64,000 nucleotides of DNA, taken from the NCBI GenBank assembly GCA_001029635.1, contig CP011209.1, positions 414,866-478,865 on the forward strand. The letters run 5' to 3'. The notes below the pieces were generated by a model. The model saw only the letters and a program-made list of their open reading frames with translations. It did no database searches and had not been told where the DNA came from. This DNA comes from Candidatus Wolfebacteria bacterium GW2011_GWB1_47_1 (GTDB lineage Bacteria; Patescibacteriota; Minisyncoccia; UBA6257; UBA9933). Below are positions 4,441-14,783 of this stretch, piece after piece. How positions within the stretch are numbered: position 1 is the first letter of the stretch; each line of letters opens with the position of its first letter. The translations under genes were made by a program, and so were the position numbers.

Positions 4441-6841
4441 AATAACCGCATTTACCGTCGGATCTATTCTTTTATTCGGATCCGTTGCAATTGCGATCGT
4501 GTTTTTTTATGCGCGATCAAATTATTACGCATTGCGACAAGCTGATATTCGGACGGAGGTTCTTGAGCAGGCGAGTGATATAGGGGCTTCACTTGAGCAG
4601 GCGAAGCGCATCGTAAAGCATATTGCAAGCGAGAAAGAATTAATACGGTATTTGGAAGGCGATGCCGAATCTTCAGATCGTGCGCGTATTGTTGATATGT
4701 TAAGTCATTACAACGGGGAGCGGCTGTATGATCCATTATACGTACTTGATCGATCAGGCATCGCTACTGCATCGCTCGATTCTACCTTTGTCGGGAATGA
4801 TTATAGTTTTCGCAGTTATTTTACGAACGCGATGCGTGGTGAGTCAACGGCAGAATTTTTGATTGGCGTAACGTCCGGAAAGGCGGGGTACTATTTTTCA
4901 TCCCCAGTCATTTCCAGTGATGGGGGTATTATCGGTGTCGTTGTAGGGAAGGTTTCCCGGGATATTGGAAATGAATTGATTTCCGGAAGTTTTTTAATAG
5001 AAAACGGGTCAATTATGATTACCGATACCGACGGTATCGTTTTGTACGCAAGTCGGGCGGATCAACTCTACCACTCTATCGGGGTATTGTCTGATGAAGA
5101 TCGGGATAGAATCACAGGAAACAGGCAGTTTGCTAATCTTCCCTTGACCTCGCTTGGATATAACCGCATCTTTCAGGCCATACGAACACATACAGGAACG
5201 CCTGACTTATTTGATTTTTCCAACCCTGTTACCCATGAGAATGAGGTGGTCGCTGTTGTTGCGATCCCGCAGACGGATTTGTTTCTTGTTGTTCAAGAGA
5301 GTGTGGTGTCACTTATTGCGCCGGTGCGCATTATTCTATTCGGTCTTATTATTGCTGTGCTCCTTTCCATGCTCGCCACTTCAATATTTGTGTACGTACT
5401 CGTTCGTCAGTTTTTGGCACCATTATCACGATTAAAATTTGCCGCAGAGCGCATCAGTGCGGGTGCGTTTGATTATCGCGTCGAGATCAAAACCGGTGAT
5501 GAATTAGGTAAAATGGGCGAACAGTTTAATGTAATGGCGGATCGTCTTAAAAATTCGTATGCCGGACTTGAACGAACGGTGGCGGAAAAAACGAGCGAAC
5601 TTTCTGCCAAGTTGGTTAGTATCGAGCAAAAGAATGCGGAGCTACGTGATACGCAACGCGCGGTATTGAATATTTTGGAAGATGCACGCAGTTTGGAAGC
5701 GCAGATTGCAGATGAGCGTAACCATTTGCGCGGGATTCTTGCGGCGATGGGTGAGGGACTCTTTGTGCTCGATGATCGATATCGCATCGTACTGAGCAAT
5801 CCAATTGCCGAGCGGATACTTGATATGCAGGCTGATGAAATTATCGGAAAGAGTATGAGCGATATCATTACGCTCTATAAGGGGAAAGAGGAAGTTCCGG
5901 TTGAAGGACGGCCTATGGTAAAAGTGTTTACTGAGGGCAAGATCATTGCGGCTGATCTGCGGGATGATTTCTATTGGCAGACATCCAAAGGGCGTAAATT
6001 CCCCGTTGGTTTCATCGCTGCTCCACTTACGGTTGGTGGAATACGAAATGAGGTCGTTGTGTTTCGCAACCTGGAAAAGGAGAAAAATCTTGATGAGGCA
6101 CGGACAAGTTTTATTTCCATAACATCACATCAGCTCCGCACGCCGCTTACGTCGATCAAGTGGTTCCTCGAGATGCTCATGGAAGGGAGCTACGCCGATC
6201 CGTTGACCGTAAAACAGCGCGAATTCGCCGACCTTGCGTACCAGGCGAGTGAAAAGATGGTGGGCATCATTAATCTTTTGCTGCAGATCGCTCGCGTCGA
6301 ATCAGGCCGATTGAAGGTGCTTCCGGTCCCTACGGATCTGAAACAGCTTACCGCTTCGATCATTGCATCGTTTGGGAATGCATTCCAGATGCGTAAACAG
6401 GTAATAATAGTCCAGACTGTTCCCGATCCGCTGCCGGTTATTCAGATTGATGTCGACGTCATGGGGCAGGTCATCCAAAACCTGTTGTCCAATGCGAATC
6501 GGTATGCGAACGAAAATAGCACGATTATCATTTCGATTGAAGCGGGTCAAGGAGAACAGGGTAGTGACTTCATTACGTATTCGATCGCCGATCAAGGGAT
6601 TGGTATCGGTAAGAATGCCACCAGTCGCATCTTTGAGAAATTCTATCGCGCAGAGAATGCATTACGATCTGTGCCGGAAGGGTCGGGACTTGGCCTTTCC
6701 TTGGTAAAGTCGCTTGTGGAGGGATGGGGCGGGCGTGTGTGGTTTGAATCTGAAGAAGGGAAGGGTACTACGTTCTTTTTTACGATCCCGATCGGTGGCA
6801 TGCAAGCTCGCGCCGGAGAAGTCGGTATTGCGGTTACTTAA
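4412..6841 (+). CDS. Sensor histidine kinase (TM-Cache-TM-HAMP-PAS-HisKA-HATPase_c)
   Basis: N-terminal TM helix. H-box SITSHQLRTPLTSI. HAMP region (..AERISAGAFDYRVEIKTGDELGKMGEQFNVMADRL..). HATPase G-boxes (GIGIGKNA, GSGLGLSLVKSLVE). Confidence 0.85.
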   Translation: MHKQISLRNKITAFTVGSILLFGSVAIAIVFFYARSNYYALRQADIRTEVLEQASDIGASLEQAKRIVKHIASEKELIRYLEGDAESSDRARIVDMLSHYNGERLYDPLYVLDRSGIATASLDSTFVGNDYSFRSYFTNAMRGESTAEFLIGVTSGKAGYYFSSPVISSDGGIIGVVVGKVSRDIGNELISGSFLIENGSIMITDTDGIVLYASRADQLYHSIGVLSDEDRDRITGNRQFANLPLTSLGYNRIFQAIRTHTGTPDLFDFSNPVTHENEVVAVVAIPQTDLFLVVQESVVSLIAPVRIILFGLIIAVLLSMLATSIFVYVLVRQFLAPLSRLKFAAERISAGAFDYRVEIKTGDELGKMGEQFNVMADRLKNSYAGLERTVAEKTSELSAKLVSIEQKNAELRDTQRAVLNILEDARSLEAQIADERNHLRGILAAMGEGLFVLDDRYRIVLSNPIAERILDMQADEIIGKSMSDIITLYKGKEEVPVEGRPMVKVFTEGKIIAADLRDDFYWQTSKGRKFPVGFIAAPLTVGGIRNEVVVFRNLEKEKNLDEARTSFISITSHQLRTPLTSIKWFLEMLMEGSYADPLTVKQREFADLAYQASEKMVGIINLLLQIARVESGRLKVLPVPTDLKQLTASIIASFGNAFQMRKQVIIVQTVPDPLPVIQIDVDVMGQVIQNLLSNANRYANENSTIIISIEAGQGEQGSDFITYSIADQGIGIGKNATSRIFEKFYRAENALRSVPEGSGLGLSLVKSLVEGWGGRVWFESEEGKGTTFFFTIPIGGMQARAGEVGIAVT

Positions 6842-10215: not shown

Positions 10216-10403
10216 ATGGTTAAGTATAGCAAATGTATTGCCTGCGCGCAGGGTTGATCTTCTTCAGAATAACGGTCGCTAGCCGTTTTACACGCCATAT
10301 AATCCCATGCAAAATTGCATAAAAAAGACGCCCGATTGACCTAACGGAAGGAGGCTAAAAAATTTGCAAAATTGATAAATTTCAGGCAATATTAGAAGCA
10401 TAT

Positions 10404-10475
10404 TGCCAGATCGTCTAATGGTAGGACAGCGGACTCTGAATCCGTCAATCTTGGTTCGAATCCAGGTCTGGCAGC
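10404..10475 (+). tRNA. tRNA-Gln (anticodon CTG)
   Basis: Cloverleaf: acceptor tgccaga/tctggca with U1-A72 and discriminator G73 (Gln identity elements). Anticodon stem cgga/tccg with loop cuCUGaa. T-loop TTCGAAT. Confidence 0.8.
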
Positions 10476-10483
10476 CCCGTAAA

Positions 10484-10558
10484 ATAACGCAAAATCAGCC
10501 CCTTCTGGGGCTGATTTTGCGTTATCACGGGGCAAGCCATTCGATGGGTTGCCCCGTG
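10484..10558 (+). terminator. Two tandem GC-rich hairpins immediately 3' of tRNA-Gln (terminator / possible att-region)
   Basis: Hairpin 1: ataacgcaaaatcagcccc-ttct-ggggctgattttgcgttat (10484-10524). Hairpin 2: cacggggcaagcc-attcgat-gggttgccccgtg (10526-10558). Confidence 0.5.
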
Positions 10559-10625
10559 ATATTTTACGAGGGCCACGTGACAAATTTCTTCGCAAATTTG
10601 TTTTACGTGGCGTATACTTATAAAA

Positions 10626-10880
10626 ATGTACTGGACTTATATTTTAGAAAATGAGGTAGATAAAAGTTGGTATATAGGTGCGACTTCTAATCTTGAAAAA
10701 CGTATCGAAGAACATCAGCGCGGACATGGTGGCGCAACTACGGGGATGAAAGTGGGTTGGAAACTTATTTATTGTGAAGGATATATAAATAAGGAAGATG
10801 CTTTTGGTAGGGAGAAATTCCTTAAAAGTGGTTCTGGTAGAAGATTTTTAAAGAAACAGTTAGCGTATTATTTGGCTTAA
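10626..10880 (+). CDS. GIY-YIG nuclease-domain small protein
   Basis: MYWTYILENEVDKSWYIGATSNLEKRIEEH..: GIY..YIG motifs with the conserved R and E. 84 aa. Confidence 0.75.
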   Translation: MYWTYILENEVDKSWYIGATSNLEKRIEEHQRGHGGATTGMKVGWKLIYCEGYINKEDAFGREKFLKSGSGRRFLKKQLAYYLA

Positions 10881-10997
10881 CTCGCGCACCTGATTCCCTT
10901 GCCCAACCCCTCTTTGGGGCGTATTATAAGTGAAATAAGAAGGGAATTAATAAGTGGGATTAAAGGCACTCTCAATCCCTTTAAGTCTTCAAGTGTG

Positions 10998-11834
10998 ATG
11001 CTTGAAATCGATATGGATATACTTAGTTCGACAGTTATTGTTATTGGAAATGGTTTTGATTTAAATCTGGGATTAAAGACGAGCTACCATGACTTTATGA
11101 AGAGTCGGTATTTTTTAGACCTACTTGTTACGGGTAATCGCCTGTGTATTTATTTAAAAAAACGCGAAAATCTTGATAATTGGGTAGATATTGAAAGTGC
11201 GCTAGTCCCTTTTTCATTGATGGAGGATTCTGTAAATTTTAAGAGTGAACTTGCTGTATTAAAGATAGCACTACGCAATTATCTAAATCATATTGATTAT
11301 GGGAATATAAATCGGAGGTCGCACGCTTATGAATTTGTTCGAGACGTGGGCATGAATGCCTCGATGATATTGAATTTTAATTATACGGATACAGTCGAAT
11401 TGATATTGCAGGAGCATGGATTGCATGCTGACTTATCTAAGGGTAAGGTGACCAAGGTTCACGGAACATTATCGAACGGTGCTGGGATAATACTTGGTGT
11501 TGAGGATAAGGCCGAGCATAGAACTGGGCATGCTTTCATTAAAAAATCTTCAGACGATTATTTCCCAGCTGTGAACGTGAGCGAATATCTTTTAGGTGCG
11601 AAATCCATCTATTTTTATGGGCATTCTTTGGGTAAGACAGATCACATGTATTTCGAAAGATTTTTTAATTCAGTAAGCGCTGCAGCTGAACCTAAAAAAG
11701 AACGCATGATTACAATGTCCTACTTAAAATCTGCTGGGAATGCTGACATGATGGAACAATTAAATAAATTAACTTCAAACAATGTGCTCATTCTTAAACA
11801 GGAAAATATTTTTATACCTCTTCCATTAGAATAA
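10998..11834 (+). CDS. AbiH-family abortive-infection protein
   Basis: The N-terminal motif VIVIGNGFDLNLGLKTSYHDF matches the AbiH signature (IGNGFDL..GL.TSY.DF). The start is ATG 10998 or 11013; the upstream part of the ORF-track call is probably untranslated. Confidence 0.7.
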   Translation: MLEIDMDILSSTVIVIGNGFDLNLGLKTSYHDFMKSRYFLDLLVTGNRLCIYLKKRENLDNWVDIESALVPFSLMEDSVNFKSELAVLKIALRNYLNHIDYGNINRRSHAYEFVRDVGMNASMILNFNYTDTVELILQEHGLHADLSKGKVTKVHGTLSNGAGIILGVEDKAEHRTGHAFIKKSSDDYFPAVNVSEYLLGAKSIYFYGHSLGKTDHMYFERFFNSVSAAAEPKKERMITMSYLKSAGNADMMEQLNKLTSNNVLILKQENIFIPLPLE

Positions 11835-11879
11835 CCCGGCATTAAAGAGGTTAGACATCTTTGGTTTTTTGAAACAATT

Positions 11880-12980
11880 ATGGCAAACAATAATCTTGCT
11901 AACGCAAAAAGGGCAAAGAATGACGAGTTTTATACGCAGTATCATGACATTGAGAAAGAAATCACTGCCTACTTTGAATACAACCCCGATGTCTTTCGGG
12001 GTAAAACAGTGCTGTTGCCTTGTGATGATCCAGAATGGAGCAACTTTACCAAGTTTTTTGCGCAAAATTTCCAGAAATTTGGACTCAAAAAACTTATTAG
12101 CACGAGCTATGCTACAGATAGTAAGAACGTTAAAAGTGACTACCAGCCAACTCGATTCGAAACCAGCGATCCGCAATACGACGAAAACAAAACTGCCAGA
12201 AACGGCAAGATTTTTACCTTATCTCACGACAAAACCGGCAACGGAAAGATAGATGTTAATGACTTAGAATGGCATTATCTAGACGGAGACGGCGATTTTA
12301 AAAGCGATGAGATCAAAGCATTACGCGATGAAGCCGACATTGTTATTACGAATCCTCCTTTTTCGCTTTTTCGTGATTTTTTAATGTGGATTATGGAGGC
12401 TAATAAGCGGTTCGTGATCATTGGTAATATGAATGCAATTACCTATAAAGAAGTGTTCGCGTTACTCAAAGAGGATCACATTTGGTTAGGTAATGGTTTT
12501 CATGCCGGCAACGCTTATTTTGCCACGCCTTTTGCCAGAGAATATGCAGGAGGAGTATATGATTCCGAAACCGGTTTAGTGAAATTCAGAAATGTTTGTT
12601 GGTTTACAAATCTTGACCATGGGCGACGCCATCAATTGTTGCCGCTTATGACCATGGAAGATAATTTAAAGTACAGCAAACACAAAGAGATTAAAGGCAA
12701 AGACTCGTATGATCGGTATGATAATTATAACGCTATAGAGGTTCCATTTACCGACGCTATCCCGAGTGATTATGATGGAGTGATGGGGGTGCCGATCAGT
12801 TTTCTCGATAAATATTCCCCTGAGCAGTTTGCGATTTTAGGAAGTGACTACAACATTAAAGAAGGACTATTGCCCGAATTAGTTAACCCGATGTGGAAAG
12901 GTAAGGTAGATAGGGGATATATAAATAATGAAAGGCGTTATAGTCGAATATTTATTAGACATAAGAAAAGTAAAATATAA
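11880..12980 (+). CDS. N6-adenine DNA methyltransferase, M.EcoRI family
   Basis: N-terminus [44 protein letters not shown] matches the characteristic M.EcoRI N-terminal signature. Catalytic motif IV: ITNPPF. Confidence 0.8.
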
Positions 12981-14143
12981 TGAAAACAACCCTAAAAACT
13001 GACATTACCGTTAAAGATATCTGCGAAGGATTTGTCTACAATGAACTCGAAGGCAAGGGGCTATTTGGCTTATCTGGCAAGCTCACTATTCAGCCGGAAT
13101 ATCAGCGTAATTATATCTACGCCGATGGTAAAAGAGATGTTGCTGTTATTGAGTCAATTCTCAAAGGCTATCCGCTCGGATTGATTTATTTCAACAAAAC
13201 CAGCGACGATGTGCTGGAAGTTTTGGACGGGCAACAGCGTATCACCAGTATTGGTCGGTTTGTTACTAACAAGTTTGCTGTAAAAGATGAAAATGGCATG
13301 GAACAATATTTTAGTGGCATCGCAGCTGATAAACAGACCCAAATTATGAACGCAACGCTACTAGTCTACGAGTGCGAGGGCAAAGAGAGCGAGATAAAAG
13401 AGTGGTTTAAGACAATCAATATCGCCGGTGTCCCGCTTAATAATCAGGAATTGCTCAACGCCGTATATTCGGGCCCATTTGTAACGCTTGGTAAAGAAGA
13501 GTTCAGTAATAGTCAAAACTCCAATATTCAAAAATGGAGTGCGTATGTATCGGGTAGTGCTAATCGGCAGGAGTTTTTGGAACGGGCATTGGACTGGGTA
13601 AGTAAAGGCAATATCGGTGATTACATGAGTCGCCACCGCAAAGATAAAAATATTACCGAACTAAAAACTTATTTTAATAGCGTGATCGATTGGGTTTCCG
13701 CTGTATTTACGGACGTAGAGAGTGAAATGCGCGGACTGGAGTGGGGGCGACTGTATGAAGAATATCATAATAAGGCATATAATCCTTCCAGGGTGTCGGC
13801 AGAAGTGCAGAGGCTCTATGGTGACCCATATATCAAAAACCGCAAAGGTATTTTTGAATTTATCTTAGGAGGTTCTGCCGATACAAAATTGCTTGAGGTT
13901 AGAGTTTTTGATGACGCAACCAAAAAATCAGTATACAAAGAACAAGCTACGAAAGCTGAAAAGAAAAAAGAATCGAATTGCCCACTGTGCGCTTTAGGGC
14001 ACGACGTCAACAAGGGTAAAATGTGGAAGTTGGAAGAAATGGACGCCGACCATGTCACAGCGTGGAGTAAAGGTGGGGCGACTTCTGCTAAAAATTGCCA
14101 GATGCTGTGTAAAACACATAACCGAGCAAAAGGAAATCGGTAA
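12980..14143 (+). CDS. DUF262 (ParB/Srx-like, GmrS-type) N-terminal domain fused to a C-terminal HNH endonuclease
   Basis: DGQQR motif ([14 protein letters not shown]). C-terminal HNH: [42 protein letters not shown]. The start overlaps the methyltransferase stop (ATGA), implying translational coupling. Confidence 0.8.
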
Positions 14144-14190
14144 TAGAACCAACGGTTTTAAAGGTATCTGACCTATTTAATTTGCATCGA

Positions 14191-14232
14191 CTAAATCCAA
14201 ACCACCCGCATGTGCGGGTGGTTTGGATTTAG
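14191..14232. terminator. Bidirectional terminator hairpin
   Basis: ctaaatccaaaccacccgca-tg-tgcgggtggtttggatttag: 19-bp perfect stem between convergent genes. Confidence 0.65.
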
Positions 14233-14783
14233 TTGATTTTAATGAGTTCCACATCGAATATTAGGGTCGCCTTTGGTGGGATCGGGCCGTATCCTGCTTC
14301 GCCGTACGCGAGTGTGTAGGGGATGGTTAGTCTACGCTGTTCGCCGACTTTCATGCCGGTAACGCCCATGTCCCATCCTTTGATGACCATGCCGGCCCCA
14401 AGCTTGAATGAGAAGGGGGTTCCTCTATCAAGACTCGAATCGAACTTGGTGCCATCTTCCAAAATTCCCGTATAGTGGACTGCGACGGTGTCGCCGTTTT
14501 TTGCTTCGACTCCTGTGCCTTCCTTAAGCATTTCTTTCTTTATTGTATTTGGTCCAAGTATTGTCATGAGCTGCAATGTTTGCTTTGTGGGATTATTTGT
14601 TGTTGCGGGGGCTTCTTCTTGTTGTAGTGTAGTTGCAGGTAGTTGCTCCTGCGGTGGCGTGGTCGGCTGTTGTTTGGTATTCTTGTTTGTTTTGAAATAT
14701 TCGAACGAGAATAGTAGAGCAATGGTGATTATTAGCGCAGTAATAATCGGTATGACAATTTTTTTATTCATGTATGTAATCAT
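14229..14783 (-). CDS. FKBP-type peptidyl-prolyl cis-trans isomerase, membrane anchored
   Basis: C-terminal FKBP domain (GDTVAVHYTGILEDGTKFDSSLDRGTPFSFKLGAGMVIKGWDMGVTGMKVGEQRRLTIP..LIFDVELI). N-terminal TM helix plus low-complexity linker. Confidence 0.85.
   Translation of the reverse strand: MITYMNKKIVIPIITALIITIALLFSFEYFKTNKNTKQQPTTPPQEQLPATTLQQEEAPATTNNPTKQTLQLMTILGPNTIKKEMLKEGTGVEAKNGDTVAVHYTGILEDGTKFDSSLDRGTPFSFKLGAGMVIKGWDMGVTGMKVGEQRRLTIPYTLAYGEAGYGPIPPKATLIFDVELIKIN

Follow-up and report, generated by a model that had tools for sequence, protein, structure and literature searches.

An EcoRI-family methyltransferase paired with a DUF262-HNH nuclease in Candidatus Wolfebacteria: a member of a catalogued and widespread restriction-modification family

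Described relatives and the Wolfebacteria pair

DUF262 comes up only in Type IV, Ssp or Menshen settings in the phylogenomic study of GmrSD (Machnicka 2015, PMC4619093), a 2025 review of restriction-modification (R-M) systems (EcoSal, PMC12707154) and the paper on the Menshen system, and reviews treat nucleases with this domain as Type IV or modification-sensing enzymes. Modified DNA is the target of GmrSD and BrxU, which work without a partner (Machnicka 2015, PMC4619093; EcoSal review, PMC12707154). The EcoRI system is composed of an endonuclease (R.EcoRI, PF02963) and a methyltransferase (M.EcoRI, PF13651), and it is the methyltransferase family of this system that is found next to a DUF262 nuclease in the stretch of DNA analysed here, 64,000 nucleotides (nt) from contig CP011209.1 of Candidatus Wolfebacteria bacterium GW2011_GWB1_47_1, referred to below as the window. 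The pair is a member of a catalogued R-M family, ordinary in its distribution and annotation. We read it, with a probability of about 0.72, as a mobile two-gene Type II-like R-M cassette whose nuclease cuts DNA that does not carry the mark of the methyltransferase. The parts of the pair are the following.

11880..12980, forward strand: EcoRI-family (gamma-class) N6-adenine DNA methyltransferase, 366 amino acids (aa); Pfam PF13651, PADLOC MTase_II
12978..12982, forward strand: TAATG stop/start overlap, read from the sequence
12980..14143, forward strand: DUF262 (ParB/Srx-like, nucleoside triphosphate (NTP)-binding)-helical-HNH nuclease, 387 aa, predicted restriction subunit
13085..13468, forward strand: DUF262/GmrSD_N domain of the nuclease, aa 36-163 (Pfam), holding the YQR motif (Q42, R43) and DGQQR
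13979..14140, forward strand: zinc-ribbon HNH domain of the nuclease, aa 334-387, with CxxC (C334, C337), D357-H358, N372, C373, C377 and H380-N381

A profile scan of the window shows that Pfam EcoRI_methylase (PF13651) covers the methyltransferase end to end (E=3.9e-121), aligning aa 5-362 with profile positions 1-345 of 345 at 405 bits against a curated cut-off of 26.4, and the PADLOC MTase_II profile PDLC03297 likewise matches it over its full length (E=2.4e-88). The catalytic motif IV of N6-adenine methyltransferases is present as NPPF (aa 158-161, nt 12351-12362) and aligns with the NPPF of a methyltransferase adjoining an EcoRI endonuclease; identity to a methyltransferase beside a true EcoRI-family endonuclease is 39% over 310 residues. 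An identical protein from Candidatus Wolfebacteria genomes is deposited in GenBank as 'Modification methylase EcoRI family protein' (AKM78169.1).

The nuclease matches GmrSD_N/DUF262 (PF03235) at aa 36-163 (E=5.3e-22) and HNH (PF01844) at aa 347-387 (E=8.9e-07), with the DGQQR motif at aa 83-87 (nt 13226-13240) and the D-H pair of HNH at aa 357-358 (nt 14048-14053). Pfam gives no DUF1524 match in the protein, the C-terminus being a PF01844 HNH domain with Cys4 zinc ligands. Across two nuclease subfamilies with about 40% identity to each other, Q42, R43, E80, D83-G-Q-Q-R87, C334, C337, D357, H358, N372, C373, C377, H380 and N381 are invariant or nearly so, and the invariance of these residues indicates that selection acts on the nucleotide-binding pocket as well as on the HNH site. 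In an AlphaFold2 model (predicted local distance difference test score 81.8) the N-terminal domain is alpha/beta, the middle region is helical and the HNH domain at the C-terminus is small, and the closest folds to the model are BrxU, which is the best match, McrA and SspE; a search of PDB sequences gave no significant match for either protein of the pair. These results agree with a preliminary description of the locus, made from the sequence, which had placed the upstream protein in the M.EcoRI family on motifs that are indeed present in the translation, had called the downstream one a DUF262 protein with DGQQR fused to HNH, and had located both open reading frames correctly.

Annotation of the nuclease is uneven. 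The PADLOC profile REase_II (PDLC03418, 'Type II restriction enzyme') aligns residues 7-386 with positions 6-371 of 372 (E=1.4e-85), and since REase_II and MTase_II both match over their full length, standard defence pipelines would call the pair a Type II R-M system. The identical nuclease in GenBank (AKM78170.1), again from Candidatus Wolfebacteria genomes, carries the name 'hypothetical protein / HNH endonuclease', and the sequence records of homologues read 'DUF262 domain-containing protein', 'HNH endonuclease' or 'McrA', the last often in records from JGI. No NCBIfam model matches the methyltransferase or the nuclease, so that both lack a curated name at NCBI.

At the junction the TAA of the methyltransferase (12978-12980) and the ATG of the nuclease (12980-12982) have one base in common, an arrangement that implies translational coupling of the two genes. 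The preliminary description was right that the genes overlap, but the overlap it gave, ATGA, is not that of the window; the four-base ATGA is the commonest junction in homologous loci, most of which show ATGA, a 1-nt overlap or a spacing of 0-1 nt.

Set beside the described systems, the pair resembles several of them in part. It has the methyltransferase Pfam family in common with the EcoRI system, and like that system it is a Type II-style cassette of two genes carried on mobile DNA, but the EcoRI endonuclease has a PD-(D/E)XK fold to which the DUF262-HNH nuclease is unrelated, and the gene order, endonuclease then methyltransferase on the EcoRI plasmid, is reversed in the window. With the Type IV enzymes GmrSD and BrxU the nuclease shares an N-terminal DUF262 domain with DGQQR; those enzymes, however, have about 580 aa and a DUF1524 domain, while the nuclease of the window has 387 aa and a zinc-ribbon PF01844 HNH domain. 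GmrSD and BrxU also work without a partner, whereas the family described here is nearly always coupled to a methyltransferase, so it does not follow the stand-alone habit of GmrSD-family enzymes. In SspE the partner, SspABCD, makes phosphorothioate and the nuclease domain is DUF1524, in place of the single adenine methyltransferase and HNH domain of the window, and no ssp genes lie beside the pair, whose neighbours are tRNA-Gln, GIY-YIG, AbiH and FKBP genes. As for HNH-type Type II enzymes and EcoKMcrA, the searches brought up no solved HNH restriction enzyme with a DUF262 domain at its N-terminus. Partial PADLOC matches over DUF262 link the nuclease to Menshen NsnA (aa 33-209, E=7.5e-29) and to PD-T4-2_A (E=2.1e-15), but they span only its N-terminal half, and those proteins have neither the HNH fusion nor a methyltransferase partner; profile scans and the gene list of an identical contig revealed no NsnB, NsnC or PD-T4-2 partner genes beside the pair.

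Distribution, evolution and variants of the pair

Homologues of the nuclease number more than 8000 in the databases, and relatives were found in at least 591 species when one genome per species was scanned. The best 120 homologues are 83-100% identical to it and come from Patescibacteria, Chloroflexota, Bacteroidota, Spirochaetota and others. Of the best 80 nuclease-related genome loci, 73 extend at least 1.1 kb upstream, and every one of these has an EcoRI-like methyltransferase there, on the same strand as the nuclease; the remaining 7 are truncated. In IMG/VR the methyltransferase adjoins the nuclease in 72 of 80 viral contigs, with nuclease identities of 39-85%, and 5 of the others are too short. 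The same arrangement is found in a nuclease subfamily of gut Clostridia (369 aa, 38-40% identity). The pairing is therefore far beyond chance and ancient. It had been called unusual in the preliminary description, which these counts contradict; the co-occurrence of DUF262-HNH genes with EcoRI-like methyltransferases that it proposed to look for in gene neighbourhoods is real, and extends across genomes, plasmids and phages.

Plasmids that carry the pair come from Enterococcus faecium, Pediococcus, Apilactobacillus, Arthrobacter, Rhodococcus, Moraxella and Mammaliicoccus, thus spanning Firmicutes, Actinobacteria and Proteobacteria, and include both small plasmids and large resistance plasmids; decayed copies of the cassette are also seen on plasmids, and Flavobacterium phage laban6-1 is a phage carrier. 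Copies on plasmids include the protein pairs WP_214330490.1/WP_214330488.1 of E. faecium and WWY82679.1/WWY82680.1 of Pediococcus pentosaceus XY62, and E. faecium BN83, P. pentosaceus XY62, Flavobacterium xanthum DSM 3661 and Lacihabitans sp. CCS-44 are carriers available in culture. When the search started from the methyltransferase, a DUF262-HNH homologue was present on 45 of the 60 plasmid records whose EcoRI-family methyltransferase is most like that of the window, the remaining records including true EcoRI systems of Enterobacteriaceae. EcoRI-type methyltransferases thus appear to have the DUF262-HNH nuclease as their chief partner in nature. The family is notable for this reach, over hundreds of species, phages and plasmids, among them E. 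faecium plasmids with optrA and erm(A), and for a nuclease that is built like a Type IV enzyme and conserves its nucleotide-binding motif. In E. faecium megaplasmids, as seen in pBN83-1 (L082, 1-6164), only a few kilobases separate the cassette from the resistance genes optrA and erm(A), and part of a Type ISP restriction gene is close by.

In a comparison of 66 methyltransferase-nuclease locus pairs, the nucleases have a median pairwise identity of 81% and the methyltransferases one of 62%. At four-fold degenerate sites the identity falls to about 0.38 in the nuclease and 0.34 in the methyltransferase, and the proportion of synonymous differences, about 0.80, is saturated; the GC content of third codon positions (GC3) of the nuclease tracks that of the host flanks (r=0.64). 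Because synonymous sites are saturated and GC3 follows the host, the high identity of the nuclease is to be attributed to strong purifying selection over a long divergence, much stronger than that acting on its methyltransferase, and the same two observations rule out recent horizontal spread as its cause.

Two methyltransferase clades, 52% identical to each other, pair with nuclease forms of 387 and 389 aa that are 80% identical, and this co-variation points to co-inheritance of the two genes; a free shuffling of methyltransferases against nucleases is ruled out for the same reason. As is the rule for Type II systems, separate and adjacent methyltransferase and endonuclease genes are here inherited together. 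Variation in the methyltransferase is concentrated at aa 81-120, 201-240 and 321-366. Within aa 241-320, three of the 20-residue blocks have an identity to the window of 0.83-0.84 and block 261-280 has 0.64, and the conservation of this region suggests one fixed specificity of the methyltransferase.

Departures from the plain two-gene arrangement are mostly insertions. About 15 of the 66 genome loci, and a number of viral contigs as well, have methyltransferase and nuclease separated by 0.3-3 kb of inserted genes. These encode Bro-N, RhuM, Fic, PIN_8, an OLD-like AAA_15 ATPase-TOPRIM protein, T5orf172 with DUF3800, DUF2130 and Dam, and further a C5-methylase (Dcm) with a HATPase_c_3 protein and a SMODS-like nucleotidyltransferase with Fic. 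A number of them belong to the typical guests of Type I R-M operons, and by this resemblance the methyltransferase-nuclease locus behaves as an R-M scaffold. The Bro-N protein, which has about 283 aa in most cases and a called length of 337 aa in L049, is met again and again, both in gut prophages and in genomes that are not related, and gives rise to a three-gene variant of methyltransferase, Bro-N and nuclease; in L029 a RhuM-family protein takes the Bro-N position.

L012, L016, L020, L043, L044, L070 and L071, up to position 6001 or equivalent: hotspot at the methyltransferase-nuclease junction for the insertion of defence-type genes
L049 4986-5999, L063 5148-5999, L071 5135-5980, L072 5156-6004, L139 and L146 3127-3978: Bro-N protein directly upstream of the nuclease

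Other loci differ in the genes of the pair themselves. The cluster representative P0175 combines EcoRI_methylase, GmrSD_N and HNH in one polypeptide of 688 aa; the fusion is natural or else an artefact caused by a frameshift where the ATGA overlap lies. In L129 (1549-3850) a single nuclease gene comes after a tandem pair of EcoRI-family methyltransferase genes, of 374 and 411 aa, which could reflect a duplication or a two-methylase variant. A distant member with 39% identity, in L174 (2874-4946), has the nuclease first, and its methyltransferase is closer to the EcoRI-type one (47%). On a plasmid of Campylobacter sp. RM16187 (L087, 2956-4531) the gene after an EcoRI-family methyltransferase encodes neither a DUF262-HNH nor an EcoRI endonuclease but a protein of 201 aa that matches no Pfam family; this protein may be a third kind of partner nuclease.

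Mode of action

If the pair acts as a Type II-like system, the methyltransferase would mark a specific host sequence by N6-adenine methylation, this methylation would protect against the nuclease, and the coupled DUF262-HNH subunit would cut DNA that is unmethylated. By analogy with GmrSD, BrxU and SspE, the DUF262 domain would bind or hydrolyse NTP to gate the HNH domain, a step for which we put the chances at about even; the conserved DGQQR raises the possibility of NTP dependence, and a nuclease of that kind would depart from the strict Type II definition. With the methyltransferase first and the nuclease coupled to it, protection would come before the nuclease. We prefer the Type II-like reading because of the domain assignments, the linkage of the two genes, their coupling, the co-variation of their clades, the invariant motifs, the nearest folds (BrxU, McrA and SspE), the PADLOC profiles, the R-M-like behaviour of the locus and its position in a low-GC islet with AbiH next to a tRNA gene.

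A number of observations weigh against this preference. To our knowledge all characterised DUF262 nucleases are modification-dependent or modification-sensing. In Type II systems it is usually the endonuclease that is the less conserved of the two, and here the opposite is seen, with a nonsynonymous divergence (dN) of 0.30 in the methyltransferase and of 0.11 in the nuclease, the nuclease evolving about 2.7-fold more slowly and being 80-87% identical across phyla despite saturated synonymous sites. Two loci, L115 (4001-5176) and L139 (4001-5173), have an intact nuclease reading frame and no trace of an EcoRI-like methyltransferase within 4 kb, even with tblastn at E=10. Both are prophage contigs and incomplete viral sequences, and in L139 the nuclease lies among an S24 repressor, a Bro-N gene and an integrase. 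Such nuclease-only loci are unexpected if the nuclease alone is lethal, but the methyltransferase could sit elsewhere in the host. The two PADLOC papers gave no indication of how the REase_II profiles behind the Type II label were seeded. The preliminary description could offer no name for the pair as a characterised R-M type, and in this respect PADLOC does supply a Type II label, while full-text literature searches yielded no paper that describes or names the pair, and no biochemical study or solved structure of the nuclease. With the pairing common and labelled Type II, the view of it as unusual and unnamed is only partly right. Palindrome avoidance in the 64-kb window, which is small and has no control set, shows only CTAG to be clearly depleted (observed/expected (O/E) 0.53), and that depletion is generic. 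On the same small window, again with no control set, neither GAATTC (18 observed against 20 expected, O/E 0.89) nor AATT (O/E 0.91) nor CAATTG (O/E 1.46) is depleted, and palindrome avoidance was dropped as a guide to the recognition site.

The nuclease-only prophage loci, and the conservation of the nuclease relative to the methyltransferase, leave some room for a mechanism resembling that of SspE, in which the DUF262 domain would read the N6-methyladenine (m6A) made by the partner on host DNA; this reading would stimulate its NTPase and free the HNH domain to nick or cleave an unmarked invader, the nuclease needing the methyltransferase and being harmless alone. We regard this as unlikely. 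The coupled, methyltransferase-first order and the apparent co-inheritance of the clades are equally expected of a classical R-M pair, the conserved aa 241-320 of the methyltransferase suggest one fixed specificity, and both cases lacking a methyltransferase are incomplete viral contigs. The rare nuclease-only loci could also be taken, together with BrxU as the best fold match and the many homologues annotated 'McrA' by JGI, as signs of a stand-alone Type IV nuclease of the GmrSD/BrxU kind directed against foreign modified DNA, with the methyltransferase a separate entity such as a travelling orphan or anti-restriction methylase. Adjacency, co-orientation and coupling in essentially every locus, from 39% to 100% identity, and the existence of a fusion protein make this improbable, as does the C-terminal PF01844 HNH domain in place of the DUF1524 of GmrSD, and a nuclease that depends on m6A would kill its own cell if an m6A methyltransferase stood next to it, except where the two enzymes had different specificities.

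The range of carriers, which includes small plasmids, large resistance plasmids, prophages and a phage genome, and the spread over very distant phyla are what would be expected of a selfish addiction or exclusion module, kept by post-segregational killing or superinfection exclusion with little defence benefit to the host. Such a proposal describes selection and not biochemistry, and is compatible with an R-M mechanism; as a rival to it we consider it highly improbable, for the tracking of host-flank GC by GC3 and the synonymous saturation point to long residence and strong purifying selection and not just recent spread.

If the plain Type II-like reading holds, the locus is one more copy of a very common cassette, and only its presence in a candidate-phyla-radiation genome of about 1 Mb is new. 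It is possible, though we think it doubtful, that DUF262-HNH nucleases with EcoRI-family methyltransferases form a distinct and abundant restriction class, in which an NTP switch gates the HNH domain and is perhaps set by the m6A of the partner, as SspE is by phosphorothioate. A class of this kind would link Type II and Type IV logic, and could explain why the nuclease is held at such high identity across phyla while the methyltransferase drifts. The nuclease family could also yield a new reagent enzyme.

The surrounding islet

The cassette sits in a small defence islet beside the tRNA-Gln gene of the Candidatus Wolfebacteria genome. GC content in the islet is 0.36-0.42, compared with about 0.46 around it in a composition profile, and the methyltransferase-nuclease pair is its last part. 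The other features of the region are as follows.

10403..10477, forward strand: tRNA-Gln(CTG), left edge of the low-GC islet (ARAGORN)
10626..10880, forward strand: small GIY-YIG protein of 84 aa, the first islet gene after tRNA-Gln (Pfam GIY-YIG, E=1e-15)
10998..11834, forward strand: AbiH-family abortive-infection gene (Pfam AbiH, E=3.3e-28; gene call in the identical contig L094)
14186..14237, no strand assigned: inverted repeat with 25-nt arms, 96% complementary, followed by a T run, a terminator-like site

The AbiH gene ends 45 nt upstream of the methyltransferase, inside the same islet. AbiH and GIY-YIG were ruled out as parts of the module, neither being present in the 80 related genome loci save for one unrelated GIY-YIG match on the opposite strand. 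The hairpin at 14186-14237 is likely to be a bidirectional terminator that closes both the operon and the convergent FKBP gene. No att-like repeats, and no direct repeat of the 3' end of tRNA-Gln, were found around 10300-14400, so the borders of the islet are drawn from the GC dip and the tRNA. Directly after tRNA-Gln lie two adjoining, near-perfect hairpins, 10484-10502/10507-10525 (100% complementary) and 10523-10540/10544-10561 (94%), which may be terminators or the remnant of an integration site.

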